From: Cirrosporium novae-zelandiae
Taxonomy: Eukaryota
DNA: 64,000 nucleotides
NCBI GenBank assembly: GCA_026023565.1
Contig: JAPETS010000016.1
Coordinates: 434,001-498,000 of the forward strand
Direction of reading: 5' to 3'
The translations under genes were made by a program, and so were the position numbers. The notes below the pieces were generated by a model. That model was not told the DNA's origin, did not search any database, and was given only the letters and a program-made list of their open reading frames with translations. Of this stretch, positions 14,181 to 54,186 are shown one piece after another (the stretch's first letter is position 1; each line of letters opens with the position of its first letter).

Positions 14181-16205
14181 ATGTTTTATTCGGCTATCAA
14201 ACCGTTTCGGCGGCGGAACTCTTATATTTTAGGGATATGGACCGTCCTGTGTACTTTCCTAGCCGCGACAGGGAGCGCAGACAAGACGGCAGCTGACTAC
14301 TACGTTAAATCTTTACCAGGAGCTCCGGATGGACCTTTGCTGAAGATGCATGCTGGGTAAGTCTCATTACAAATTTATTGCATGTCTGCTCACCACCCCT
14401 TTACAGACATATCGAGGTTAATCCGGACACTAACGGCCACCTATTCTTCTGGCACTTCCAAAATCGACATATCGCAAACCGACAAAGGACCGTTCTATGG
14501 TTAAATGGAGGTCCGGGTTGCAGTTCAGAGGATGGAGCGTTGATGGAGATTGGTCCATACCGAGTGAAAGATGAAAACCATTTGACATATAACGATGGTT
14601 CGTGGGATGAATTTGCGAATGTGCTATTCGTGGATAATCCAGTAGGGACTGGATTTAGCTACGTCAATACGGATTCATATATCCATGAATTGGATGAGAT
14701 GGCAGATCAATTCATTGTATTCCTGGAAAAGTGGTTTGATCTATTTCCTGAATATGCGAGAGACGACGTAAGTTTTACCCGTCATACCACTAAGCATTTC
14801 TAATTGAAAGTAGCTCTATATTGCAGGGGAATCATATGCTGGCCAACACATTCCTTATATCGCGAGAGCAATTCTAAAGCGCAACAAGGAAAAGGAGGAA
14901 AGTGCTAGATGGAAGCTAAATGGTCTACTGATCGGGAATGGATGGATATCTCCGGTTGAACAATACATGGCATATCTTACCTATGCCTATAAAGAAGGCA
15001 TGATCGAAAGAGATTCCAACGAGGCAAAGCAATTAGAGTCGCAACAGGCTATCTGCATCAAGGCTCTCGATGAAGCGGGAACTCCAACGCCAATCGACGT
15101 TTCGCAATGTGAAGCCATCCTCCAGGATGTTCTACGGTTGACAAAGACAAAGTCGAATCAATGCTACAACATGTATGATATTCGGCTTAAAGACTCGTAC
15201 CCAAGCTGCGGCATGAACTGGCCTCCCGACCTGACCTCTGTGACACCCTATCTTCGTCGGGAAGATGTTGTTCAGGCCCTTCATATCGATGCAGATAAGC
15301 GCAGTGGCTGGTCCGAGTGTTCAGGTGCTGTCGGCAGTGCTTTCACAGTCAGGAATTCGATCCCTTCGATCGACATCCTCCCAGATTTACTCAAGGAAGT
15401 TCCTATACTTCTCTTCTCTGGTGCAAAGGACTTTATTTGCAACCATATAGGCACTGAAGAGCTCATTCATAATATGAGATGGAATGGGGGAAAGGGATTT
15501 GAATTGTCTCCCGGTGTTTGGGCACCTCGTCGTGACTGGACTTTCGAAGGCGAACCAGCTGGTATCTACCAGGAGGCCCGTAATCTGACCTATGTTATGT
15601 TCTACAATTCTAGTCATATGGTGCCATTCGACTACCCACGGCGCTCACGGGACATGCTTGACCGGTTCATGAGAGTCGATATTGCTAGCATTGGCGGGAA
15701 ACCTGCAGATTCTCTCATTGATGGGGAGGAAGGCCTCCAAACCTCGGTGGGTGGTCATCCAAACAGCACGTATGCTCAAGAGGAAGCCGAAAAGAAACTT
15801 CTGGAGGCTACATGGGCAGCATACTACAAATCTGGAGAAATCGTTCTCGTGGTCGTGGCAATTGCTGCTGTAGCTTGGGGGTACTGGATCTGGCGTGGTC
15901 GTCGCAGAACTACGGGATATCAAGGCCTCTTTGGTGGGCCGCAAGCCAATCCACATGGTCGTCATGTATCATTTGGAGGCGTGTCTGCAAGCTACCACAG
16001 CAAGCGTTCAGCAGATCTTGAAGCTGGTGATTTCGATGAGGATACGGTGCTGCAAGATCTACATGTACAATCACCGCGAGATGCAGAAAGGCCAAATGGC
16101 AACGGAAAGGAATATCAAGATGATATGGAAGCTGATAGATACAGCATTGGGGGGATAAGCGATGAGGAGGATGGTCCAACGGCCAAACCAAGCGGAGCAA
16201 GATAA
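14181..16205 (+). CDS. KEX1: Pheromone-processing serine carboxypeptidase (S10 family)
   Basis: Signal peptide, [27 protein letters not shown] nucleophile motif, [10 protein letters not shown]-terminal TM helix and acidic cytosolic tail. Two introns (about 14357-14406 and 14768-14813). Confidence 0.95.
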
Positions 16206-30705: not shown

Positions 30706-31607
30706 CCATATATGAAAAATGAGGTGTTAATCGGAAGTTTGATGCGTTGTCTGTGTTGGATTGGTGGAGTGTAAAAATCAATTGTCATAGTTCGAATCAA
30801 ATTCCATGATTAAATTTCAAAAGGGAACTTATCGAAAGATTCGGCTCAAAAGTTCAGTCCTAATTGGGCCTAGTGTGGGATCTGAGAATTCCTGAGAATT
30901 TCTGAGAATTATAACGACAATTGGGTGGTTGTGGGTTGGTTGGTGGTCGTGGATTTTGGCTACATGTGATCTGGCTTGTTTCTGAGAGGCCGAGCACCCA
31001 CCAACAAATCCCCCAGAAAGTCCCAAAAGTTCCAGAAATCATCCCCAAATTCTCTAGATCAGATTATTCTGAGGGTCCCCTTTTCTTATTTATTAAATTC
31101 TATACAGATACAGCAACCATCCTACAAGGATCCTCGACCAGACTACCCGAACACAACATCCTAGATTGCACGCGACCTGAATGATCCTCTCCCCCCCTCC
31201 AATAGTTTAGCCCCCAAGTTTGTTACTTCCATATTCTTCTTTTCTCCAGACCAAGAAACAAAGGCTTCATACATCCCTCCAAACTTGAGATCAACCTTGT
31301 ACGCTAGCAAAAGAGCAAACAGCATCTTCAAACTGACCGCCGATAAACCCTTGGAGAAACTAAAATACCACGTCTTCTACTTCATGAGTAACATCTCAAG
31401 AAATCAAAACTTGGTTTACCTTATGTTGCAACATCTCCAACCTCATCTGCTACGTGACATCAGACTCTCAAAGGCCTGACTTGGGGAGCCTGCGACAACC
31501 TTCCATCCTTCAGCGCAGCAGGCGCATCAGCGCTCATTTAGCAACCTCCAAACTTCATACAAATAATATATTTCATTTACTGCAAATAGCTACTGACCAC
31601 CGCCTCC

Positions 31608-32982
31608 ATGTGGATCCTACGAGTTCTCTCTTCCATTTTCTTTCTCTTCGCCATAATCCTCACCATTCCCATCGCCTTCGACGTGGGGGGAAAGACCTGC
31701 GGCTTGGCTTTCTCCCTCTCTCTCGCTATATTTTACTTCTTTTATTCGCTCCTTCGACTAGTAACGCCAGACCGTTCGCGCTATCGTTACGGACTGTTGC
31801 AAGCCTTTTCCTTGGTACAATGGGTATTACTACCCTCCTTGCTGATATGGGCTTTGGGGCATTTCGCCGTGGATGCAGATAATAGTAGTGGTTGGGTGGA
31901 AAGAACATTCGGTGGAAAGAGAGCGGATTTCACATCAGTTCAAGAATGGATATTTGGTTCCGAGGGGTTGGTGGAATCTTTCAGCATCACATCCTGGGAC
32001 AAGGTTCTCCATTGGTCTACTCCAGTATTCCAACTTACGGAAGGGTTCTGTAGTCTTCTCGTTATTCAAGCTGCAGGGCAATTTACAAGATATCTTGTCA
32101 ATAGTGATGGAAGAAGTGATAGCTGGATGGTAAGTTGGGATCAAATCAAATGACATTTTATGAAACTAATCTGGCTTCTAGATTGGATTACTGGTCCTAT
32201 CAGCATCAATTATTTCGAGCTCCATCTACTTCCTCATCCGTGTTATTCAATTTCCCGACATCAGCAATGTTGACTCCACCTTGATTGGTGTTGCAATAAC
32301 CTGTGCCGTTTTTCTATGTGCCTGGGGTATTGGTAGTGGCCGAGGTAATCCTGTCGAGAGCTCTCTACTTTTTGCCTACATCGTCCTATGCATATACCAG
32401 ATTTTCACAGACTATCAACCATCTCACCCAACTGAGCCGACACCTCCAGCAGCAGAAGCAGCAGAATTTCCGCCTTTCCCTCCTATCATCATGGCATCCT
32501 ATACAACTTTAATTCATGCGCTTTCGACCCTTCCTTCCGCCATCCTTGGCTCCTTCAATTTCATCGCAGCTGCACTCAACACCGTCACTCCTTCAGTACT
32601 AATTTCTTTAACCTACCGCCTCTTCGTCCTCTACGCTGCAACCAGGATCATTCCTGCGATTCGAGAATCAGGCGCCCGTGCTCTCTCACAGGAACCTTCG
32701 CTTGAAGACTCTGATGGTGCAGGTCGCTTCCTTGGGCTATTAAGTTACTTTAGTCCTTCTATTTTAATTGCTGTTTATACAAACCTTTTGTTGCAACATT
32801 TTTCGACGACAAATGGAGAAAGTGTCCAGGACTGGTGGATTCTACAAGGGGGCGCCAATGCGGGAGGAAGCTTTTGGAAATGGATCAATCTGGCAGGAAC
32901 AATGATCTTGTATGCCGTTGAACTGTATATCGGTACAGATGATGATGATATAAACTTGACCAGTCATTGGAAAGAAGACTGA
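31608..32982 (+). CDS. ICE2: ER membrane protein Ice2
   Basis: ILTIPIAFDVGG..CGLAFSLSL, STPVFQLTEGF, GIGSGRGNPVESSLLFAY. Multi-pass membrane protein with one intron at about 32130-32181. Confidence 0.9.
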
Positions 32983-35796: not shown

Positions 35797-37431
35797 ATGT
35801 GGTTATTACTCCTCGCCTCCCTCTTGGCTGGGACCTTCTCTCTCTTCTTCTTCTCCCACCTGCCGGTTCTTTATGTCGGTCGATTGCTAGGGGATCGTCT
35901 CCGCTCGAGAGATATTGATAGGCGAGAACAGGAAATTACTCGTATTAGAGCAGTGGATGAAGAATGCCAAGCCCAGAAAAGAAGTTCCACTAAGGGCGAA
36001 GAAGATGATGAATGGGAAAAGGTGGAAACATATGCTGCTGGTACAGCAAAGAATGGAGGCAAAGCAGAGCCTGAGTTTGAAGGTATCTTCGGTTTCTTCC
36101 ATCCCTCCTGTCACGGTCGTGGTGGTGGGGAGCGAGTGCTTTGGGAGGCTATCAAGGCTATCCAACAACGTTGGCCTAGGGCGATTTCCGCCGTCTACAC
36201 CGATGACCATGTAGACAAAATGACTATTCTCGAAAGTGCTGAAAAGAACTTTAATGTTCCATTGCACCATCCAACAATCATCTTCCGTTTCCTACACACC
36301 TGCGAATTCCTTGAAGCTAGTAGATGGAAACATCTCACTTTACTTGGACAGTCACTAGGCTCATTAATTCCTGCCAATGAGGGGTTTCACCTGCTTATTC
36401 CAGATATCTTCATTGAGACTTGCAACAACAACTTTACTCTAGCGCTTTCAAAATTATATTTTCCAGATATGCCAACAGCTACATATACTCACTATCCGAC
36501 CATATCCACGGACATGTTGGGCTCCTTGGATTCGGAGAAGGCAGGAGGTCGAGGTGTAAATGCTGGCCTTGGAAAAGGTTGGAAAGGTATAATGAAGAAA
36601 CGCTACTGGCTCTTGTTTGCCCAACTCTACGGTTGGGTTGGTTCTAACGCCGACATTGTTATGGTCAATTCTTCCTGGACTCGTAATCACATTCAATCGC
36701 TCTGGGCTGCCTCCCGCTCTAAATGGCCTATTCCCCAATCCATCAACGTCCTTTATCCCCCGGTCAATTTTGCTGAACTGGAATCTGCTATTGAGATTTC
36801 CGATTCCGTTGAATTCTCTCGTGAACCAATTCTTCTCTATATAGCACAATTTAGACCCGAGAAAAACCATAGTCTCCTTCTCCATGCCTTTGCACGGCTT
36901 CTCCGTCCTCAGGGCGAAGATTCCCCAGAGCAACCTCCTCAAATCGCCAATGCTAAACTTGTCCTCCTCGGGTCTGTTCGTGAACAAGACGAAAAAGGAG
37001 TATATTCTCTTCGTCTTCTTGCCCGCGATCTAAACATCAACTCTTCAGTCGAATTTGTATGCAATGCGCCCTGGCAGGATAAGAATCGTTGGCTTCGACG
37101 TGCTTCTATCGGTGTAAGCGGCATGTGGTGTGAACATTTCGGAATTAATGTCGTAGAATATCAAGCCGCTGGTCTCATCAGCATTGTCAACGACAGCGGT
37201 GGCCCAAAAGAGGACATTGTAATTGATTACCATGGAGGTCCTACCGGGTATAAGGCCAGTACCGAGGAAGAGTATGCAGAAGCATTCAAGAAGGCCTTGA
37301 TGCTACCAAAGAAGGACAAGGTCGCAATGAGAAAGAGAGCGAGAGAGAGCGCCAAGCGGTTTATGGATACAGAATTTGATACCAGATGGATTAAACATAT
37401 GGAGGAGTTGATTGGGATGCTGAAGAGGTGA
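35797..37431 (+). CDS. ALG11: GDP-Man alpha-1,2-mannosyltransferase ALG11-like (GT4), divergent
   Basis: N-terminal TM, FFHP..GGGERVLW, TLLGQSLGS, HYPTISTDML, NSSWT, AQFRPEKNH, EHFGINVVEY (EX7E), SGGP. Intronless. Confidence 0.88.
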   Translation: MWLLLLASLLAGTFSLFFFSHLPVLYVGRLLGDRLRSRDIDRREQEITRIRAVDEECQAQKRSSTKGEEDDEWEKVETYAAGTAKNGGKAEPEFEGIFGFFHPSCHGRGGGERVLWEAIKAIQQRWPRAISAVYTDDHVDKMTILESAEKNFNVPLHHPTIIFRFLHTCEFLEASRWKHLTLLGQSLGSLIPANEGFHLLIPDIFIETCNNNFTLALSKLYFPDMPTATYTHYPTISTDMLGSLDSEKAGGRGVNAGLGKGWKGIMKKRYWLLFAQLYGWVGSNADIVMVNSSWTRNHIQSLWAASRSKWPIPQSINVLYPPVNFAELESAIEISDSVEFSREPILLYIAQFRPEKNHSLLLHAFARLLRPQGEDSPEQPPQIANAKLVLLGSVREQDEKGVYSLRLLARDLNINSSVEFVCNAPWQDKNRWLRRASIGVSGMWCEHFGINVVEYQAAGLISIVNDSGGPKEDIVIDYHGGPTGYKASTEEEYAEAFKKALMLPKKDKVAMRKRARESAKRFMDTEFDTRWIKHMEELIGMLKR

Positions 37432-38269
37432 CGAGAGGTAAAGCGTTTTCTATAAGAAATTACCCGAATAATATAAATGGTGGTTGGCAGAAGCACAACT
37501 GTTCAAGGAACTGGATGATACGTTTATAGAGCCTTCGTGTTTAGCATTCAACTTAAATACTTCCATTTGAAGCTATAAATCATGCTATACTATTCCGCAA
37601 CGCCCCCTTGCTATGCTAAACTTCAGTCCGCACGCATCACTAGTCTAGTTTAACTACCTATTTTCTCAGATCAAGCTGTACAACCTTTTGACAAACCTGG
37701 CTTATTGCTTTGCTTCAGTAGTGTTGAATAATTTAGGTGGGTTTCGAGCTCGACTAACTACGCCATAGGAAAAAAAGGGGGGCTTAGGCGAAGAAATCGA
37801 TGGGCGACATCATGATTCACGGGTGAATCACAGAATTATATAAAGGTATGATTGATTTAATAAATAAATATATAATATATATCAATCAGAGGTTTCTAAG
37901 GAAGTTATGGTGGTGATTTCCATCAGGTTTCCCCTAAACCTCACCAGCAATATTGTCGAAAACCAAAGTTCAAAACGACTAATTAAGTCCCTCAAATGAT
38001 ACAATCAGCTTTTGAAAATTGGACGTGCAGCAATAATTATATTCTTCCTGAGGGGTGGTTACTGTACTGTAATTATATAAAATCCGGAAAAATCAAAATC
38101 CTGAAGGTGGCACGACAAGTTTTTGAACTCCAGACTCACAATGTCTTGTCTTATCTTCACGTGATTTTTTATCTAATCTAAAATGCTAAACTCCAACGCT
38201 TTTAATTAAACCTCCCCCCACCAACCTCAATCACAAAAATTCCCCCCCCCTTATCTAATAATTTGTATT

Positions 38270-38401
38270 TTTATAGACCAAATAGACTTTGAGCAATTAG
38301 GGTCCTAGTCGGTCTATCTATCAAAAAGCTTAATTTGGATCGGTCTAAGGTCTATAGGTTAGACTATCTATTTGGTCCTAATTAGTCTATTCACAACCCT
38401 T
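38270..38401. mobile_element. Transition-mutated terminal fragment of a DNA transposon (hAT/MITE-like)
   Basis: Dense TAGAC/GTCTA/GGTCC subterminal repeats ending in TTCACAACCCTT, the reverse complement of a CAGGGTTGTGAA-type terminus. The pattern fits C>T and G>A decay of GGACCG repeats. The partner end was not found. Confidence 0.55.
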
Positions 38402-39202
38402 GCCAAGCATACGGGCATTTGAGCTAAAATAATATATAGTTATTAGTTCTTCTTAAACCCTTTTCTAGTCATGAAACAAATTTGGGTTTCAAATTCGGAG
38501 CTTTTAGATACTATAGGGAATCAAATATTTAGGTGTATATGCAGTCAATAAATGAGCAAATAAGGTGCTATGTGCTATGTGCCATGCGCGGGTGCGATGC
38601 AGAATGGGGTAGGTAGGTAGGCCGAGTTTATGATATTATGGGAATGCAAGAGAAGAAGGTGTCCTATATTGGTTTTTGGTTTAGGTGGCGGGAGTGTTCG
38701 TTGGCTTGTCTCTAATAAGGTGGTTCAAAAATATACCGCACTTGAGAGATGCGTCTATAAAGAGAATCGTCATGCCCTTGGATTTAGTTTGTTTAGGAAT
38801 GTATAGGCTGTGAAGTCTGGAAATGGAGTGAATCTGGAAATGGAGTGAATACGGGAAGGAAGCAGGGGCCACTTTGGGCAGAGACTCTCTCCTAAACTCT
38901 TGAATACAAAAAAAAACTAGTCTTCGGGTTAGCTATATCATATGAAAACCTCCTAAGGTTTTCGGAGAAGAAAAGATAGCGAGACGAAGGTGAATAAAAA
39001 GCCAGCCTGGCCATTTCGCTTCAACATACCTAAATCCTCAATTGATTACAAGAGAGAAAAATCATAAAGTTGAATTAAGTTGGCTTGTTCAGTTCTTGGG
39101 TGCGAAAAAAAAAGAAGGGCCGAGTGTACTTAAATTTCTATTGCCCCCCTCCTTCTCACTTCTTCTTCATTATTCTTACAGCCGACATTAGAACAACGCA
39201 AA

Positions 39203-40438
39203 ATGCCGCCACCAACATCTCGCCCTAGCGATTTCTATGATCTCTCTCGCTGTGGTACAGGCCAGATACTCGAATACCTCCGTCTCGCGATCGACTACGT
39301 GCATGAACATTGCCATGATCCTCCCGCCCACTGGGACCACCGGGACTGGGAGTACTACAGCGATGACGAGGAGTACTGTAACGATGACGAGGAGTGGACA
39401 GGCCCGGCAACGGCGAGGGATAGAGATGAGTCGCAGAACCAGGAGGTGGAAGTGAGAATGGGAGCTGCAGCCTATAGAGCAGCTAGGGAGAGAAACCAGG
39501 GTGAGGATGACATGGATGACATGGATGACATGGACGTCATCGAAGTGCTCCGAAGACAAATAAATCGCTTACGAATTGAGATCAGCGATGTACGACATGA
39601 GCGCCAGAGGCCCTCCCAAAGGTTTAGCAACGCAATTATAAACCATGACTGGGATCAACCCAGTGCTAGCAACCCCGTCGACGATGGTGTTTGGTATAAC
39701 GATGAGCGACCAGCAGAGGATCATTCAACTCCTAATAGGCTGGAAGAACCTGTATTTTCAATAGAAGAATCAGATCCATTCGTGAATACTACCCATGATG
39801 GTGTTCCGACCGTATGGTACCACTGGCAGGACATGATTCTATGGTCGCTAAGAGGCAATGTTGACGAGGTGAGGGATGAAATTCAAGATTTCTTTCGCTT
39901 TGAACCACCTATTAGCAGAGAATATATCCGTGAAAGACTTTTCGGTACAATTGAAAGAGTTTCCGAGCATCTCACATTCCTAGAACGGTATCTTCCTGGG
40001 GAAATTTGCACAATTCGACGAGCACGCGCCCGGCTCAATACAATTAGAGAAGATATCAATGAACAGGCAGTCCTAGATGGTGGCGAACCCGGTGACGTTG
40101 CCGTCTCATCTACCGATTCTGAGAATTCTGTTACTCCTCCCTGGCCTAACGAAAACCCACCAGATAGGTGGAATAGAGACGACGATGTCGAGTTGAATAT
40201 ATTACTAAGGGCTGGACGACCACCAGGAGCATTTGTGGGCCATCTAGGATCAAACATAGAGACAGCATGGATATCAAGTGAGAGAGTAAATCTGGAATGG
40301 TTGGCTATACGCATGGCACAGAGCCTACATTTGGGTATCACGGATCGCGAAGTGGCACTTGCGATTGAAACACAGGATATCAGAGAGATGGAAAATTCTT
40401 TTGTTTTGGAAGAGGAGAATGCTTTTGTTTCGGAATGA
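39203..40438 (+). CDS. Hypothetical acidic, lysine-free 411-aa protein
   Basis: Uninterrupted 1236-nt ORF with a good start context (CAAAATGC) in an otherwise AT-rich gap. No recognisable family. Confidence 0.8.
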   Translation: MPPPTSRPSDFYDLSRCGTGQILEYLRLAIDYVHEHCHDPPAHWDHRDWEYYSDDEEYCNDDEEWTGPATARDRDESQNQEVEVRMGAAAYRAARERNQGEDDMDDMDDMDVIEVLRRQINRLRIEISDVRHERQRPSQRFSNAIINHDWDQPSASNPVDDGVWYNDERPAEDHSTPNRLEEPVFSIEESDPFVNTTHDGVPTVWYHWQDMILWSLRGNVDEVRDEIQDFFRFEPPISREYIRERLFGTIERVSEHLTFLERYLPGEICTIRRARARLNTIREDINEQAVLDGGEPGDVAVSSTDSENSVTPPWPNENPPDRWNRDDDVELNILLRAGRPPGAFVGHLGSNIETAWISSERVNLEWLAIRMAQSLHLGITDREVALAIETQDIREMENSFVLEEENAFVSE

Positions 40439-41080
40439 TGATGAAATTGGTTTAACGGCATACAAGAATCAGAATGGGGCCTTTACGATTCTATGCAAAA
40501 CTGAAATTGGGTTATTGTTGCTGGTTTTTGCTGATTTTGTTAGTCTGTCCTCCCTAATTTTAGATATCGATACGCAGTAGTATTCTATCATTCCGGTCCT
40601 TGGGACAAAAAAGTTGTTGAAATGAAAGGACTTATGGCCTTTGGACTTCTCAGAAGTCACAATTTTTTTTTCCTTTTTCAAGAGGGTCCTCCCAAATGCT
40701 AGTAGGTGGGGAATACTCGCAGGTATCCTCTCCACCCAAAGGCCCGGAAGTACATAGAATGCTTCCAAATAATCTATCCTTCTGTATATTACGATGTCTT
40801 GGCAGAAATGTTAGATCTTTGCATCTCCTTTAGAACACCTTGATAGAAAACATACATGTTCCAGTCCATAGTTGCCCACCTCATTCTTGGGAATTGCATT
40901 TCCTTCAACCTTCGGTCTCTTGGAGAGCTTCCCCTTGGCTGATGTAGATCGTTAGGAAACGATGGTTAAGTACCTAGGTACCTACGTAGGTAGCATTGCA
41001 AACTCTGAAGGAAACTAGTCGGTTGTGTCCCAGTTCATACTTGATAGTGGATGTAGCCATTGACGATAGGCTAATACAGA

Positions 41081-42124
41081 TCATTTAGAAGCTGCCCTGG
41101 GTTTCGTAACTTTCACAATATTTAAATGATACTTGGGCTTGCACTTCATTGGCGGCAATTTCAAGGGCATCTTTATATTCATAAACCCCATAACAACCAC
41201 GCTCATCATCATATTCGAAACCCAATACTCCAGGATCGCAGTTGGCATTGCCACCATGATTGGGCCCATGGCGAAGCTCACCATGTACAGAGTTCGCGTT
41301 AAATATTTCTGGAGCCTGGTTCGGTCTCGTGTGCCCGTGAACCTCGTTGAAGAGAGGTAAACTGTTGTGATCATAGAGGCCGAAAGGAGAATTGGGAGTC
41401 CGAATGTATAGTCCATGGCGGTGAGGTTTTCGAACCAGAGAATACCTTCGGTGTACATAGATTCTTGAAAAGGGATAAGGCTGTGAGACAACATTTTTTC
41501 AGAATCGTTCATAGTCCAGCCCATAACCATGGAAAGTAATCCCTCCCTGAATCCGCACATTCGCCGGAGGGTATCTAATACCGCTATAAATATAGGTGAC
41601 TGCACCATGAAGGGAGCAAACAGCTTCCATCCCTGACAATTGTGGCGTTTGTAGAATATTTTCTGTTGTTTCTTGATTTCATCTTTAAACTTGGCCTCCA
41701 GAGCCTTTGGGTTCCTGGCTAAGTATTCATCTTTAAACAATTCCTTCTTCTTCAATTGAGCCCAGGCATTCATAACTGGCGCCACGTCTAATCTCTTCTG
41801 TGTCACTCTTCTGCTCATGATTTGCGGAAAGATAAATATGGTTCGGAGAATGACGGCCGTCAGCGGGAGGGATAATCCCCAACATAGGCCCGTCGCATCG
41901 TGGATACCGAGGACGAAGGTATATGACATAGTTAAGACGCCTGAAAGAATTTCGGGAACTTGCGTAAGAAGTTCTGGAGACCGTGCAGGTGGAGTGGCAT
42001 GGAAATTTCGAGCATTGAGTGGTAGAAGAATTGAAGCTCTCGGGGTCCACGAAGGAGCAAAAGCCGGATGACATAGTCGAGACTTCAATTGACAAGTCAA
42101 TCTGGGGGGATGAAAGGGCCGCAT
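41081..42124 (-). CDS. COX18: Mitochondrial inner-membrane insertase, Oxa1/YidC family (Cox18-like)
   Basis: Arg-rich presequence (RNFHAT), IHDATGLCWGLSLPLTAVILR, PFMVQSPIF, EGILWFENLTAMD, PTAILEYWVSN. Lacks the long ribosome-binding tail of Oxa1. Confidence 0.85.
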   Translation of the reverse strand: MRPFHPPRLTCQLKSRLCHPAFAPSWTPRASILLPLNARNFHATPPARSPELLTQVPEILSGVLTMSYTFVLGIHDATGLCWGLSLPLTAVILRTIFIFPQIMSRRVTQKRLDVAPVMNAWAQLKKKELFKDEYLARNPKALEAKFKDEIKKQQKIFYKRHNCQGWKLFAPFMVQSPIFIAVLDTLRRMCGFREGLLSMVMGWTMNDSEKMLSHSLIPFQESMYTEGILWFENLTAMDYTFGLPILLSASMITTVYLSSTRFTGTRDRTRLQKYLTRTLYMVSFAMGPIMVAMPTAILEYWVSNMMMSVVVMGFMNIKMPLKLPPMKCKPKYHLNIVKVTKPRAASK

Positions 42125-44646: not shown

Positions 44647-45029
44647 TGGAAATGAAGGTCAAGGTGACATGCAAAGGAGTGACAGGAATATTTCAAGACA
44701 TGAAGGATTGATAGATTTATAAGTGGGATTTAGAGAATGAAGTAGAGTTGGTGTTCTTTTAACTCTATTAATACCATGTATTGAACCGTGTAACTTACTT
44801 GGTCAACTTACGGAGGGCGCGAGAACAAATGCGGCAGGTGGTCGTTGAGTCAAGGCCCCAAGGCGGTGGCAGAATGAATTATTAGAATTACAGTGACTGC
44901 GTCATTCCTAATAATCAGCGAACCACATCACAGTTGATTTAATCATTATTTTATACAGTAAAACACTGAAGTCTCTTTCAACTATAAGCTCATATCCCAT
45001 GATACAAAATAAACCACTACGAAACCGCC

Positions 45030-47513
45030 ATGTCGTCTCGTGCTCTTAGAAAATTACAGCGACAAAAAGAACAAGAAAGGCTAGCGAAACTAGAAGAAGC
45101 CGAGGCAAATGATGCATTAGAAGATGAAGAAGAGGAACCACAGGCAAATAGTCAAGGAAATTTCTTCGATATGCTGATGGGAACTACACAACAAGATTCG
45201 GAAAACTCGGAGCATTCAGAAAAAGAAAGCGAAGAGGAGGTTAAAGAGCAAATAAATAATAATGAAGTCGACCCGAAACCCTCACATCCTTCCGAGAAGA
45301 AAAAGAGGAAGAAGAAGAAAAATAAGAAGCAGAAAGAGAAGGCTACCGAAAATAGAGCTGCAAAAAAAGAGAAGGGAAATGTCGACGAGATTGATCTGGC
45401 CTTACAAGAGCTTGCCCTGAAGTCAAAGCAACTCGATTCTACTACAACAAAGTCTACACCTACGTATAATGACAACGAGTGGTATAGTCTTTTATCAGTC
45501 GACTCACGGAACCTTGATCCACTAAATGAAATGAAACGATTGTTTGGCAGTGAGGTGGTTAACTCTGACCAAGAATCTCCAAGTGCTGGAACGCCCAACA
45601 GCAGGCGGAGAGGGAGAGTACAACATCTGGACCTGGCAGGAGCTCTTGCTGGACGTAACAGTCCCATTAATCGGGGCCAGGTTCTTTCAGGACTTGCTCT
45701 TCGGAAAAATGTATTTGTTCGAGGAAAAGACGACTGGCCACAAGGTACGGGAGGTGGATTAGGCATGGAAATGGTGCGCAAGAATGAAGATGGTTCAATT
45801 CTGTTCAAATTCGTGCACAATTCTGTATATAATGATGTGCAACGCCAATTTGGGACTTGCGTTGAATCTATGGATCCCGAAAGACTTATCCACCTCCTCG
45901 TCTTCAACCCGTATCATGTTTCTACACTTTTACAGGTCTCGGAAGTCGCAAAACACCAGGGAGACCACTCTGTTGCTGGCGATTTACTAGAACGTGCTCT
46001 CTTCACATTTGGACGGTCAACATCATCTTCTTTCGCGAGTGCCCTTCACGAGGGTAAGGCTCGTATGAATTTTGATATTTTCGAAAATAGAGAATTCTGG
46101 CTTGCGGCATGGCGCTATTTAAATAACCTCGGTATGCGAGGAACATGGAGAACCGCATATGAATGGGCGAAACTCCTATTAAGCCTTGATCCAACCGACC
46201 CTTATCGAGTTGATCTCATTATTGATCAGCTTGCTATTCGTGGTGGTCAATATGACCATTTTGTCAAGCTGGAAATGGCTGGCCCTCACCTTCTACCCCA
46301 TTACCCTATTTTAAATATCCAAATCTCCCTTCCTCTTGCTCTACATAAATTGGGCGATGCACGTTGTCGGTATGAGCTAGAAAGGGCCATTAAGGTATGG
46401 CCATGGGTATTTACTCGTCTATGTCAGGAGCTTAATCTTGAACCAATTCCGAAAGCTATCTGGGGTAAACAACCTCCCAATAACGATGCAAACTTGTTTT
46501 GCGAGCTCTATGTCCAACGAGCGAAAGACATTTGGAATACCCCCGAAGCCACTTCTCTTTTGATGGAAGTAGCAAACCGTGTCGACCAGAAGGACACGGG
46601 GAAACAAAAACCCCCTAAAGAGCGACCAGATCTAAACGTCGCTCGTCACCTCATGCTGACTGAAGATCGCAAACTTATGGCCCTCCTACCACCTTCCCTT
46701 TCTCACCGCGAAATATCCGCCTCAGATCCTTTCCCGCCAAGCGAACAACAATCACAGCCCCAACGCTTCTTTACAAATGAAATAATTCCTCCTCTTCCCC
46801 AGGGCGAACCTCCACAGTATCAAGGTAATATAGACGAAGCGGGCGAACCAGCAGCTGATGCCTCGTCAGTAGCCAACCTTATCCGAAACGCGATGAATTG
46901 GCTGCGGCCCGTTTTGGGCACACCAGATGTATTGGGGGGTTCTCAAGGCGACGGTGAAGCCTCGATGGAACGAGCCGAAGATGAAAACGAAAACGAAGGC
47001 GAAGCAGATAGCGATGCTATCGCATCACCCCTCCGCCCTACCGATGCTAATGAAGAAGAACGAGCGATGCTGCTCGCACGGATGGAACAACTCCTCGAAG
47101 CCGAAGCCCGCCTCCGCCAAGAACAGCACCAACGACTGTATGGAAACGAGGAGAACGAAGCCGAAAACGAAATGGACACAGAATCCATAGACCCTGACTA
47201 CGACACTGCGCCTCGAAGTGTAGAAGAACTTGAACAACGCCATCAGCACTGGCTGGCCGGCCGTGGCATGCTTGCTCTTCGTGACTTTACGGCTCAGCAT
47301 GGAACGGATGAGTCAAAATGGCCTGTGGACCTTGACTACGATATCGTCCTCAAGTATGCGGATCGGTTGCAAGGATTAGAAAGCCGACAGGCTAGAGACT
47401 TTATACTTAAATATTCGCTCACGCAGGGAACATCGAGGGATGTGAGCGCGCTGGTGAGGAGGGTGTTGGATGATGAAGAAGAGTTTGAAAGAAATGTGGG
47501 GAGTGTGGTGTGA
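45030..47513 (+). CDS. RQC1: Ribosome quality control complex subunit Rqc1 / TCF25
   Basis: MSSRALRKLQ start, polybasic KKKRKKKKNKK tract, NPYHVSTLLQVSE, DLLERALF, ENREFW, RGTWRTAYEWAKLLLSLDP. Confidence 0.93.
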   Translation: MSSRALRKLQRQKEQERLAKLEEAEANDALEDEEEEPQANSQGNFFDMLMGTTQQDSENSEHSEKESEEEVKEQINNNEVDPKPSHPSEKKKRKKKKNKKQKEKATENRAAKKEKGNVDEIDLALQELALKSKQLDSTTTKSTPTYNDNEWYSLLSVDSRNLDPLNEMKRLFGSEVVNSDQESPSAGTPNSRRRGRVQHLDLAGALAGRNSPINRGQVLSGLALRKNVFVRGKDDWPQGTGGGLGMEMVRKNEDGSILFKFVHNSVYNDVQRQFGTCVESMDPERLIHLLVFNPYHVSTLLQVSEVAKHQGDHSVAGDLLERALFTFGRSTSSSFASALHEGKARMNFDIFENREFWLAAWRYLNNLGMRGTWRTAYEWAKLLLSLDPTDPYRVDLIIDQLAIRGGQYDHFVKLEMAGPHLLPHYPILNIQISLPLALHKLGDARCRYELERAIKVWPWVFTRLCQELNLEPIPKAIWGKQPPNNDANLFCELYVQRAKDIWNTPEATSLLMEVANRVDQKDTGKQKPPKERPDLNVARHLMLTEDRKLMALLPPSLSHREISASDPFPPSEQQSQPQRFFTNEIIPPLPQGEPPQYQGNIDEAGEPAADASSVANLIRNAMNWLRPVLGTPDVLGGSQGDGEASMERAEDENENEGEADSDAIASPLRPTDANEEERAMLLARMEQLLEAEARLRQEQHQRLYGNEENEAENEMDTESIDPDYDTAPRSVEELEQRHQHWLAGRGMLALRDFTAQHGTDESKWPVDLDYDIVLKYADRLQGLESRQARDFILKYSLTQGTSRDVSALVRRVLDDEEEFERNVGSVV

Positions 47514-50699: not shown

Positions 50700-53600
50700 A
50701 TGTCGGACAATATGTCTGATGCGGAGAAGGTTGTTTCCTGTCGCCAACTTAACAAGAGCTCACTTAGCTGACATCATTGACAGATCCGCAATAAACGGTT
50801 GGCAAAACTTGGTGGTGGTAATGCAGTTAATCATTTAGATGGAACTTCTTCGCAGCCCTCTTCATCAACTTCAACTCCTCAGCCCAAAGGGGAGAGCCAG
50901 AAATCACCTATTTCAACTCCATCCACACCTTCCCTCACGAATCCTTTCCAGCAGCTGGGTTTAAAACAGCCTACAAGTGAACCTCGGATACGTGATAAAC
51001 CTGCAAGCCCGGAACAGCATACAGGGCATAATACATCACGAAAGAAACCACATCTAGAAGACATTGGGATATGGGAAGATCGAACGTTGAGCTCGATATT
51101 TAGACTCACATTGAAGGAGGATGTTAAGACCGATCTACATGGGCATGACCTATTCTTTATTCCTGGAGTAAAATCAGAGCTGGAAGATCAAGGTGCACCG
51201 GTCAGTCTTAGTGCTGGGGTTCTCGAACAAGCTCTCCTTGAGGCAGCTTCTGGATGCAAGGGCACACCCTTAGATTATCTTCTAGGATGCTGGAAGAGAG
51301 TATGTAGAGCTCTGAAGGCCACTGGGAAAGTGGAGCCTAGGCATGGAATTATTAAGGAAGCCAAACGATTATGTATGAGTTATTGCATATTCGCTGCGAC
51401 AATGCCAGAGATGTTTGGGTAAGTCTGTTCTTACACTAACACCATCGAAGACTGCTGATATTTTGTAGTGTGGAAGAACCACTAGAGAATTCGCTCACAG
51501 CACATCTCCTTGTGGATTCCGAGGACGATTGTGGCCTATGCCCCGAGTTTCTGCAAGAAGCTGTGAACCGGTTCCCTGAAGATGATACTATTCGTGATGC
51601 TCTTGTAGGCGCTGCTGAAGATATCAGTCGGAAGCTAGCGAAATTAACGATGAATGATGATTACAAGCCATATGTGACGGCTTTGAGAAATCTAGCGAGA
51701 TTTCCCAAGATTATTGAAGCAATAGTCGAGTCTCCATCATTTCTACCTCTACTCACCAATTCCCCCGACATCGAGCAACAGACATTTCTTGGGCCATTCT
51801 TTCGTATCTCTCCCTTGCAGGTTCCGGTGGCGCAGAACTACTTCTCTAGTCCCAAAACTCTGGATAAAGGTTATATAGTCAACTCGCAACGAGCACTCCG
51901 CATGACTCTTAAGAACCACCAGGACGACTTGTATGATATAATATTTAATTTTGTTCGGGCTGCCCCACAGACTCGCGAGAAGACCCTGGACTGGTTCGCA
52001 ATGTGTGTCAATCTGAATCACAAGCGGAGGGCCATGCAGGTTAATCCTAACGAGGTTTCCACGGATGGGTTTATGGTCAATGTAACGATATGCTTGGATC
52101 AACTTTGTGAACCCTTTATGGATGCAACGTTTTCCAAAATCGATCGGATAGATATTGGGTATTTGAGAAGACGCCCTAGAGTCAACATTCGGGATGAAAC
52201 CAAGATCAACGCTGATCAAAGTACTTCAGATCAGTTCTATGATCAATCTACCGAAGGCACCTCAAATTTCATCTCAGAAGTTTTCTTCTTAGCCCTTGCT
52301 GCTCATCACTACGGCTATGAAGCTACGAACCAAAAGCTCGACCAGCTCGAGAAGCAGTTAAAGCACATGGAAAAACAAATCAGCGTTTTCGAACTTGATC
52401 GCCATAAATATGTAAACCAGCCTGGAGCCCTCGCAATGTTTGAAAGAAGCCTTAAGAAATACAAACAGAAGCTTGATGAAGGTCTTTCCTACAAGTTGGC
52501 TGTCCGAGGAGTGCTCCTCGATGAGCTATCTCAGGCTCGGTCAATGCAATTCATGCGTTATGTAATTGTCTGGATGCTCCGCCTTGTCTCTCCAGGTCAA
52601 ACATACCCTAAGCAACCACTAAAGATTCCGCTTCCCGAAGAGCCATCCGAGGTATTCAAATGTCTTCCTGAGTACTTTCTCGAAGACGTTGTCGACAACT
52701 TCAAATTTATTACCCGCAACATCCCTCAAATTATTACTGCTTCTCAAAGCGAGGAACTAGTAGTTCTCTGCATCACCTTTCTCCGCTCTTCCCAGTACAT
52801 CAAAAACCCTTACCTAAAAGCTGGCCTCATTACAATCCTCTTCCGCGGTACCTGGCCTATGTACTCCCGTCCTAAAGGTATTTTAGGCGATCTTCTCGTA
52901 GGCTTCCCCTTTGCAACTGAGCATCTCCTACATTCCCTGATGCAATACTTTATCGAAGCAGAGTTCACAGGTGGACACACCCAGTTCTTTGATAAATTCA
53001 ATATCCGTTTTGAGATTTTCCAAATCATTAAGTGTGTCTGGTCAAATACGGTGTATCGCCAGAATCTGCTCACGGAATCAAAAGTCAATGTTGAGTTTTT
53101 TGTTCGCTTTGTGAACTTGTTACTGAACGATGTTACGTTTGTACTTGATGAGTCTCTTGGGGCGCTAGGAAAAATCCACACGTTGCAAGAAGAGCTCAAA
53201 GATCCATCCCTTGACCAGGCAGCACGGGCGAACACGGAAGAGAAGCTACAGCAAGAGCAAGGCCGCGCAAAGTCATACATGCAACTTACAAACGAGACGG
53301 TGGCAATGCTGAAGCTCTTTACGGAAGCTTTGGCGGACGCATTCACAATGCCCGAAATCGTACAACGGTTAGCTGACATGTTGGACTATAACCTGGATGC
53401 GCTTGCGGGGCCAAAGAGCTCGGATCTCAAGGTTGACAATATGGGGGAATATGGCTTCAACCCGAAAGCTCTGCTCGCCGAAATCGTTGACGTCTACATG
53501 AACCTTCATCGAAAAGATAATTTTATTCTTGCAGTTGCCAGGGACGGCCGATCCTACAAGCCCGTAAACTTCGAGAAAGTGTCACAGTTGATGAAAAAGT

Positions 53601-54186
53601 TTGGCTTGAAAAGCGCAGACTACATTGTGGAATGGGAGGCGTTGCAGGTTAAATTTGCAATGACCAAGGCCGAGGATGATAAGGTTGAGGAGGATCTAGG
53701 AGAGATTCCGGATGAGTTATTGGGTGGGTTGCTGTTTTCATTCTGGTTGTTTCTGTTATTTACGCTAACACTATCTTCAGATCCTCTTATGTATACCCTC
53801 ATGGAAGACCCCGTCATCCTCCCCACATCCAAAATCAGCATCGATCGTTCTACCATCCGTAGCCATCTCCTCTCGGACCCCAACGATCCTTTCAACCGTG
53901 TTCCATTGAAAATTGAAGATGTGATCCCGGGTACGTATTCCTACCCCCTTTGTATTCTACCCCAATTCCCGACATCTTCATCATACCTTAACTAAACAAT
54001 ACTAACCCCCAACCTTATTTTCCATCAGACACGGTTATGAAAGCAAAAATTGACGCCTTCGTCCAGGAGAAAAGAGGACGCTCACGCAAGGAATTCACGA
54101 GCACGAATACTAATGCTACTGTAGGCGGAGTTGGAGAAGGACATGAGGAAGGGGGTACGGATCCTATGGATACGACTGCCGGTTAG
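50700..54186 (+). CDS. UFD2: Ubiquitin conjugation factor E4 (U-box)
   Basis: [10 protein letters not shown] start, [38 protein letters not shown], and U-box ([36 protein letters not shown]). Four introns. Confidence 0.96.

Follow-up and report, generated by a model that had tools for sequence, protein, structure and literature searches.

Lysine deserts, defined as lysine-free stretches of at least 150 residues or of at least 50% of a sequence, are found in slightly fewer than 10% of eukaryotic proteins (Szulc et al. 2023, PMC10665810). They cluster among components of the ubiquitin-proteasome system according to three publications on which we draw here (PMC10665810; a 2026 review, PMC13696103; Kampmeyer et al. 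2023, PMC10169902). So far they have been linked mostly to recognisable components of this system. In this work we describe a whole conserved family of fungal proteins that is depleted of lysine and has no known domain. The family was recognised from one open reading frame (ORF) of Cirrosporium novae-zelandiae, which encodes 411 residues without a single lysine. It lies in a stretch of 64,000 nucleotides (assembly GCA_026023565.1, contig JAPETS010000016.1, positions 434,001 to 498,000), called the window below.

The best described deserts belong to several kinds of proteins. The desert of yeast Slx5, a subunit of a SUMO-targeted ubiquitin ligase (STUbL), has 398 residues, and in fungi the trait is found in the large homologues. 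The substrate-binding disordered regions of San1, a nuclear quality-control E3 of yeast, have no lysine either, and single added lysines lead to rapid degradation (both after the 2026 review, PMC13696103). In VHL and SOCS1, lysine was lost to arginine in evolution, and the folded substrate-binding domain is included in this replacement (PMC10665810). Deserts of 482, 521 and 950 residues are described in RAD23A/UBQLN-type shuttles and BAG6, with no depletion of arginine; the retained arginine is regarded as an argument against net charge as the cause of lysine deserts (PMC10169902).

The lysine-free gene and its family

The C. novae-zelandiae protein contains 47 glutamate and 42 aspartate residues (89 in total), 41 arginines and 13 histidines, and has a net charge of about -48. 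A first-pass annotation, made from the sequence alone, had pointed out the missing lysine beside abundant arginine, aspartate and glutamate and had considered it to be beyond chance. Both statements hold. Twelve neighbouring ORFs (6,388 codons) have 5.10% lysine, 6.43% arginine and a Lys/(Lys+Arg) ratio of 0.44. At the neighbours' lysine rate the chance of finding no lysine in 411 residues is about 4.5e-10, and at their Lys/(Lys+Arg) ratio the chance of finding none among 41 basic residues is about 4e-11. Among the 34 stop-to-stop frames of at least 150 codons in the window, this frame has the lowest lysine content (0.2%, due to a single lysine upstream of the ATG); the second lowest is that of the membrane protein ICE2, 0.8%. 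All 411 of 411 residues being free of lysine, the whole protein is a lysine desert by the definition given above.

The G+C content is 0.485 in the ORF, 0.442 in the window and 0.38 and 0.41 in the two flanks, in line with the AT-rich surroundings noted by the annotation. Base composition therefore does not explain the absence of lysine. The DNA of the ORF contains no AAA or AAG (AAR) triplet in frame, against 17 and 14 in the other two frames, and many of its codons are one step from AAR (47 GAR, 21 AGR and 22 AAY). Among the arginine codons AGA and AGG make up 21 of 41, compared with 128 of 411 in the neighbours (Fisher p 0.014). The excess of AGR fits a replacement of AAR by AGR.

We searched 1.84 billion representative proteins exhaustively with phmmer. 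At E<=1e-3 there are 33 homologues (E from 7.8e-29 to 9.8e-4), 21 of them at E<=1e-10, with an identity of 26-41%. All of them align through residues ~190-395 of the C. novae-zelandiae protein, and in 32 of the 33 the homology starts at residues ~133-214. The protein had been called an orphan, which is not the case. A word-indexed search of 5.8 billion proteins would have led to the same conclusion, since the protein matched only itself there; a search of this kind with the full-length alignment gave six rows, three of them new, and was swamped by acidic low-complexity words. The neighbouring gene, which encodes the ALG11 mannosyltransferase, was used as a control. Its best non-self relative in the word-indexed search, among lichen-forming and other leotiomyceta, has only 55% identity. 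Thus the database holds no close relative of the source fungus, and the null result for the lysine-free protein means little. The lesson for method is that a word-indexed search yields an "orphan" where an exhaustive hidden Markov model (HMM) search yields 33 relatives.

The named members come from eight Aspergillus species and Arachnomyces (Eurotiomycetes), Sarea resinae (Sareomycetes), Phylliscum demangeonii (Lichinomycetes) and Piccolia ochrophora (leotiomyceta incertae sedis). They are annotated as hypothetical or uncharacterised throughout. A full-text literature search found no mention of six of their locus tags and accessions, and in a search on lysine-free proteins of Aspergillus or Pezizomycotina none of the papers listed deals with such a family. 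Pfam gives no family for the lysine-free protein at E<=10, RING included, which agrees with the earlier remark that no RING is visible. No domain was found in 16 homologues at E<=0.01, and in a loose scan (E<=10) of the 34 members of the alignment no family occurs in more than two of them.

The family member and ALG11 are exactly two NCBI accessions apart on the same contig in all four named species checked: Sarea resinae (KAI9831447 and KAI9831449, the family member being given first here and below), Arachnomyces sp. PD_36 (KAK2763889 and KAK2763891), Aspergillus clavatus (EAW08045 and EAW08043) and Piccolia ochrophora (KAI9801246 and KAI9801248). This synteny is read from the order of accessions, not from the DNA of the relatives. 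In A. melleus both genes lie on one contig of 181,538 bases. Searches of metagenome contigs for DNA of relatives, with an alignment of eight sequences and with the representative P0152 alone, gave no match. In the window, ALG11 ends 1.77 kb upstream of the lysine-free gene on the same strand. Judged by gene order, the lysine-free gene is the positional orthologue next to ALG11 that three or more classes of leotiomyceta have conserved. This position dates the gene back to the common ancestor of these classes or earlier, and rules out a lineage-specific origin, as formerly suggested, or a mobile one. A tree of the C-terminal domain common to all homologues (33 rows; P0151 was left out as too short) approximately follows taxonomy. 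It is very probable that the protein is a real member of this lysine-poor family, an old one of filamentous ascomycetes that has no name so far.

The depletion of lysine is a feature of the family. In the 33 pooled homologues (14,006 residues) lysine makes up 1.49% and arginine 8.56%, so that Lys/(Lys+Arg) is 0.148, compared with 4.86%, 6.60% and 0.424 in 119 ALG11 homologues of comparable fungi (65,623 residues). In 25 of the 33 homologues the lysine content is below the minimum among 120 ALG11 orthologues (2.25%). Four of the 33 representatives have no lysine at all: P0128 (245 aa), P0138 (710 aa), P0140 (700 aa) and P0152 (797 aa). Two more members of the P0152 cluster, P0156 and P0157 (797 aa each), are lysine-free too, and P0153 (815 aa, two lysines), P0160 (772 aa, two) and P0142 (388 aa, one) are nearly so. 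In the domain tree, the lysine-free rows belong to three or more clades with good support. The avoidance extends to the folded and the disordered part alike, with 1.36% lysine inside the C-terminal domain and 1.60% outside it. In the domain alignment no column has lysine in more than six of the 33 relatives, and R217, R273, R277 and R370 are invariant or nearly so.

The homologues are thus depleted of lysine and retain arginine, eight of the 33 departing from the trait. Both parts avoid lysine but not arginine, which is retained or even enriched; the constraint thus concerns the side chain of lysine itself and not charge. The suggestion of the annotation that selection is at work gains from the depletion throughout the family, and we consider it probable that the avoidance of lysine has been selected. 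What is of interest here is an avoidance that reaches through disordered and folded parts, with independent lysine-free members of 245-797 residues.

Domain architecture and short motifs

The features of the gene and its immediate surroundings are collected in Table 1. The first 190 residues lie on the disordered side of the charge-hydropathy boundary and are barely alignable to those of the relatives. This half of the protein is thus strongly acidic, evolves fast and is probably disordered. A single-sequence AlphaFold2 model has a predicted local distance difference test score (pLDDT) of 40 overall, which makes it unusable, and of less than 50 over most of the N-terminal half.

Table 1. Positions in the window of the lysine-free gene, its parts and the adjacent features (SIM, SUMO-interaction motif)
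Feature	Residues	Position	Strand	Description
ALG11 mannosyltransferase gene, syntenic anchor		35797..37431	+	Pfam ALG11_N E 4e-69
AT-rich intergenic gap between ALG11 and the lysine-free gene, 1.77 kb		37432..39202	.	no ORF >91 codons
Lysine-free gene, complete coding sequence	1-411	39203..40438	+	411 codons and TGA; ATG in AAAATG context
N-terminal half	1-190	39203..39772	+	20 Arg, 47 Asp+Glu, net -27; by charge-hydropathy
EDDMDDMDDMD-VIEVL, acidic run and hydrophobic core	101-116	39503..39550	+	strict SIM-like motif
Conserved C-terminal helical domain	~198-395	39794..40387	+	common to 33/33 homologues; no Lys in the C. novae-zelandiae protein
Repeat unit 1	199-248	39797..39946	+	P-x-x-W...D..L...RG...F.F.PP.S...I..RL
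YLPGE-x-x-T-x-x-RARAR, best-conserved stretch	263-277	39989..40033	+	by alignment
Repeat unit 2	316-373	40148..40321	+	P-x-x-W-x-R-x-D-D-x-x-L ... (F/W)L-x-x-R-M-A-Q; three helices in the model
Oxa1/60KD_IMP-type gene		41081..42124	-	after the lysine-free gene

The C-terminal domain is net acidic (21 arginines versus 37 aspartates and glutamates). Predicted by AlphaFold2 from the alignment of 34 sequences, it is all helical with a pLDDT of 87.2 and a predicted template-modelling score of 0.83; confidence is lower in a linker at model residues ~100-140. The residues that are invariant in the domain throughout the family (F233, L246, P265, E267 and R277) are all present in the C. novae-zelandiae protein. 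The alignment of the domain to the relatives is ungapped, and this agrees with the earlier description of the gene as intronless for the part that encodes the C-terminal domain, to which the evidence is confined.

The two halves of the domain are related to each other. Aligned by hhalign, they score 26.6 over 49 columns (P 7.7e-5), whereas 60 column-shuffled controls reach 15.9 at most and the reversed control 7.5. Both units follow the pattern P-x-x-W...D..L......G......(F/W)(L/I)..R(L/M). On this comparison of profiles the C-terminal domain is made of two homologous helical repeats. The best-conserved stretch of the family, YLPGE-x-x-T-x-x-RAxAR, lies between the units; P265, E267 and R277 are invariant in it, and L264, G266 and R273 nearly so.

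No known family can be assigned to the domain. A sequence-profile search of the PDB gave no match at E<=10. In the ESM Atlas there was no usable feature match, and the structure rows, which came from an Atlas model of low quality (pLDDT 0.37), had template-modelling scores of 0.38 or less. A clear match to a known family whose composition would explain the bias, named by the annotation as counter-evidence, was found neither in Pfam nor in the PDB. A helix motif RRQI-x-R-x-L, which had seemed to be shared with relatives, was discarded: it is off by one residue in the C. novae-zelandiae protein and confined to four members of one subfamily.

The short motifs quoted by the annotation are all present in the translation: EDDMDDMDDMDVIEVL, EEPVFSIEESD and RDDDVELNIL as acid-flanked hydrophobic motifs, VLRRQINRLRIEISDVRHE as a short coiled coil, and HEHCHDPPAH as a cluster of His and Cys. 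They differ in their context. The cluster and the putative short helix of the supposed coiled coil fall in the non-conserved N-terminal half, and EEPVFSIEESD is situated at the N-terminal edge of the C-terminal domain. RDDDVELNIL is part of a conserved helix of repeat 2 (with W323 and D328). Lying within the folded domain, it is not a free linear motif, as which it had been read.

For SUMO-interaction motifs (SIMs) we used definitions after ELM and the literature. EDDMDDMDDMD-VIEVL is the only strict SIM-like motif outside the folded domain, where 0.10 are expected from shuffles of the same residues. It is not conserved throughout the family. In four of seven members of a subfamily of long proteins, a core of the type (V/I/L)(I/V/L)D(L/F)T (VIDLT-type) occupies the same position of the alignment, after an acidic run; shuffles give 0.03-0.05 per protein. 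This core presumably resembles SIMs of the PIAS/RNF4 type.

The long subfamily itself (P0138, P0140, P0152, P0153 and P0158-P0160) comprises proteins of 700-846 aa with 0-6 lysines. Its N-terminal part contains strongly conserved blocks which belong to no Pfam family: RTRPRHHFRRGAISEASG, YGREGWWTVE, LNLFQSVDLFAPP and EPEGW..L..V.DDDYP.EV.FHIGS....YPIEEVE.W.

Some proteins of the family start with Met-Pro. Such a start was found in 13 of the 34 representatives (the C. novae-zelandiae protein at 39203-39214, P0123, P0133, P0134, P0138, P0142, P0146-P0148 and P0150-P0153), compared with one of 120 ALG11 orthologues, which are not independent of each other. After removal of the methionine, a lysine-free member with a Met-Pro start would have no primary amine at all.

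Possible role and alternative explanations

The absence of lysine is most likely, by analogy with the described deserts, a protection from lysine-directed modification by a partner machine. We propose tentatively that this ALG11-linked member of a lysine-poor family acts as an adaptor that is shielded from such modification; the proposal as a whole is quite possible and falls somewhat short of probable. On this view the protein would serve as an adaptor or regulator without catalytic activity. Its C-terminal domain would dock on a lysine-modifying machine, most likely a conjugation or targeting complex of ubiquitin or SUMO, and its acidic N-terminal tail with one or more short acid-flanked hydrophobic motifs would bind clients or SUMO. 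Without lysine, the protein could escape bystander tagging and turnover, as is described for Slx5, San1, Rad23/UBQLN and VHL. That the machine in question is that of ubiquitin or SUMO is plausible on the same analogy, and here we are more reserved still. A further-reaching idea, that the family represents a new class of fungal "amine-free" adaptors, i.e., non-RING components of the SUMO/ubiquitin system that carry a SIM-type motif before two Myb-like repeats and cannot be tagged by amine-directed modifiers, appears doubtful at present.

Among the described systems, Slx5 also has a long lysine-free, acidic and largely disordered region with retained arginine and acid-flanked SIM-like motifs (PMC13696103). 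Unlike Slx5, to which no sequence relation is detectable, the C. novae-zelandiae protein lacks a RING, has one SIM-like motif outside the fold in a family without general enrichment, and is free of lysine over its whole length, folded domain included. San1 shares a disordered region devoid of lysine (after the same review). It differs in having a RING with clustered lysines. RAD23A, UBQLN1/2 and BAG6, as characterised in PMC10169902, are non-catalytic adaptors whose long deserts keep arginine, and the desert with retained arginine is common to them and our protein. In contrast to the UBL-UBA shuttles, Pfam finds no UBL, UBA or STI1 domain in it; repeat 2 gives VIA-align Z scores of 3.9 and 3.6 with the XPC-binding domain of Rad23, which is within noise. 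The substrate receptors of cullin-RING ligases VHL and SOCS1 are small non-catalytic adaptors in which the replacement of lysine by arginine reaches into the fold (according to PMC10665810), as it does here, whereas the C. novae-zelandiae protein has no SOCS, VHL, F-box, BTB or WD40 signature and nothing in the PDB clearly matches its fold.

The RING that is characteristic of STUbLs is absent from the protein (Pfam, E<=10) and from 16 homologues. More generally, the catalytic E3 domains RING, U-box and HECT were found neither in these sequences nor in the loose scan of 34 members. Of the modules of cullin-RING receptors (F-box, SOCS/BC box, BTB and DCAF WD40) there is no Pfam match in the protein or the 34 members at E<=10, short BC-box-type motifs not having been rigorously searched. 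Since no defining domain was found, the protein cannot be counted among the STUbLs, San1-type E3s, cullin-RING receptors or UBL-UBA shuttles.

Several observations speak against a shielded adaptor. The annotation had named homologues with normal lysine content as evidence to the contrary. Most homologues are not of this kind, as stated above, but 8 of the 33 contain 2.3-5.6% lysine, so that the trait is not universal and the fold and some lineages evidently tolerate lysine. In the domain taken by itself, the A. clavatus protein has as much as 4.9% lysine and P0145 has 4.1%, and the clade of the C. novae-zelandiae protein spans from 0 to 28 lysines. The gene models of some relatives are automatic calls on short contigs with perhaps wrong starts. 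From their sequences, some lysine-rich N-terminal extensions look like over-long calls; for example, P0137 contains an internal MPLIIP that corresponds to the start of P0134. The 33 N-terminal parts show no enrichment of strict acid-flanked SIM-like motifs (7 versus 4.66 expected). Neither the protein (E<=10) nor any of 16 homologues (E<=0.01) has a match to a ubiquitin, SUMO, RING, U-box, F-box, SOCS-box, UBL or UBA domain. Structure searches were not specific either: Foldseek had a best E of 2.3 in the PDB and of 0.55 in BFVD, and VIA-align against 48,161 chains gave none at Z>=5 (best Z 4.8). Finally, absence of lysine does not preclude ubiquitylation, given that p14ARF, p16INK4a and HPV-58 E7, which are naturally lysine-free, still receive ubiquitin at the N-terminus, as the 2026 review has it (PMC13696103).

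A role in chromatin or with nucleic acids would give the same signature another cause. The C-terminal domain would then be a diverged tandem Myb/SANT-like helix-turn-helix (HTH) that binds DNA or histone tails, and lysine would be avoided on account of lysine acetyl- or methyltransferases beside which the protein works, or of a need for arginine in binding or in condensates. That arginine and lysine differ in condensate formation is noted in PMC10169902. The two homologous helical repeats with their W...D..L and (F,W)L..R(M,L) patterns are in favour of such a role, and in some respects the domain resembles Myb/SANT and transposase HTH domains: according to the model there are two tandem three-helix units of ~55-60 residues with a leading tryptophan and an acidic helix 1. 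The best structural matches of both halves, weak as they are, are three-helix HTH/Myb domains as well (Z 3.5-4.8, root-mean-square deviation 2.0-3.5 A, 44-60 residues), which is within the noise of the tool for helical folds. These are SETMAR (Z 4.8), the R2 Myb region (4.5), Mos1 (4.3), Tc3 (3.9), T. vaginalis Myb3 (3.9) and ISWI SANT-SLIDE (3.5), with ARR1 and LUX among the further top rows. Repeat 2 (model residues 132-195) matches SETMAR, Mos1, Tc3 and Myb domains in the same range, again within noise. However, every Z score is below 5, Pfam matches to Myb, SANT or HTH (PF00249 and relatives) are absent among the 34 members at E<=10, and the domain is net acidic, unlike DNA-binding Myb domains. 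We also know of no counterpart to the YLPGE...RAxAR stretch in Myb/SANT or HTH domains. The Myb/SANT-like nature of the modelled domain is therefore a lead and not a finding, and a role in chromatin is, on the whole, unlikely.

It is about equally unlikely that the absence of lysine has no function of its own and reflects drift in a fast-evolving, acidic, arginine-preferring protein under weak constraint. The lysine content of the relatives does vary from 0 to 5.6%, even inside the clade of the C. novae-zelandiae protein, the N-terminal halves are barely alignable, and lysine deserts occur among eukaryotic proteins at the frequency quoted at the beginning (PMC10665810). Drift does not account for a complete lack of lysine in 797, 710, 700 and 411 residues of separate clades in which arginine still makes up 9-10%. 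The codons one step from AAR, so numerous in the ORF, have not yielded a single AAR in frame, although the other frames contain AAR triplets. A compositional cause is ruled out by the G+C content of the window (44%) and the 5.1% lysine of the neighbours.

A spurious or unexpressed ORF is very improbable: the frame is open from stop to stop over 434 codons (39134..40438), its base composition by codon position is of the coding type (G 0.38 at position 1, A 0.36 at position 2), it retains every invariant and near-invariant residue of the family, and it is the sole match in the window of the family HMM, with E 1.2e-76. A selfish or transposon-carried, lineage-specific factor built for escape from the proteasome, which the AT-rich flanks and the failure of the word-indexed search to find a homologue had favoured, is the least credible explanation of all, being contradicted by the linkage to ALG11 in four of four named species (three classes and one unplaced genus), the approximate agreement of the domain tree with taxonomy, and the absence of repeats (from 30 to 48 kb), of a transposase or other Pfam match and a repeat-induced point mutation (RIP) signature in the flanks, and of a second copy in the window.

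The adaptor shielded from lysine-directed modification remains the reading that we put forward. If the lysine-desert signature marks proteins that work beside a lysine-modifying machine, the family is a candidate new player in the ubiquitin/SUMO biology of fungi. It also offers a natural test bed, since it comprises related proteins with lysine contents from 0% to about 5%.

Genomic neighbourhood

The lysine-free gene is surrounded by core genes. These are PRP21, MYG1, ICE2, tRNA-Glu, ALG11, the lysine-free gene, the Oxa1/60KD_IMP-type gene, PP2C and TCF25. More distant neighbours are a sugar transporter, endosulfine, an S10 carboxypeptidase, Tcp11, an NmrA-like gene, Ufd2, a WD40 gene and a fungal transcription factor.

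The annotation had placed the gene beside transposon debris, for which we found no evidence. There are no direct or inverted repeats of at least 25 bases in the part of the window from 30 to 48 kb. The RIP indices of the flanks (0.97/1.16 and 0.90/1.19) match those of the gap between ICE2 and ALG11 (0.91/1.18), and the second RIP criterion failed. An Rfam search of the gap and flanks gave no match, a Pfam scan of six ORFs of the flanks gave neither a match nor a transposase, and the family HMM found no second copy of the gene in the window. The gap upstream of the gene contains a tandem duplication of ggaaatggagtgaat (two copies, 38816-38853) and A9 runs at 38911-38919 and 39106-39114.

In each of the four named relatives exactly one accession separates the family gene from ALG11; the matching gap here holds no ORF of more than 91 codons. 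Either a gene has been lost in C. novae-zelandiae, or it is small and rich in introns, or the genes are locally arranged in another order.

Two further genes lie downstream of the lysine-free gene. A Ufd2-type ubiquitin chain-elongation gene (51440-53995; Ufd2P_core E 4.7e-248 and a U-box) is 11 kb away, and a TCF25/Rqc1-type gene (45003-47513) is 4.6 kb away. Their proximity is probably a coincidence.

On the opposite strand an ORF of 192 codons (39883-40461) covers the 3' half of the lysine-free gene. Its only Pfam match, to DUF5570, is sub-threshold (E 0.055, 13.9 bits versus a cut-off of 26.2), the antisense frame of 199 codons yielding nothing above threshold, and the ORF is most likely a by-product of the codon bias of the sense strand. 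The S10 serine carboxypeptidase extends over two adjacent frames, 14309-14803 and 14814-16205 (profile positions 15-139 and 138-419), which could be due to an intron or a frameshift. ICE2 is likewise split into two frames, 31590-32153 and 32182-32982.

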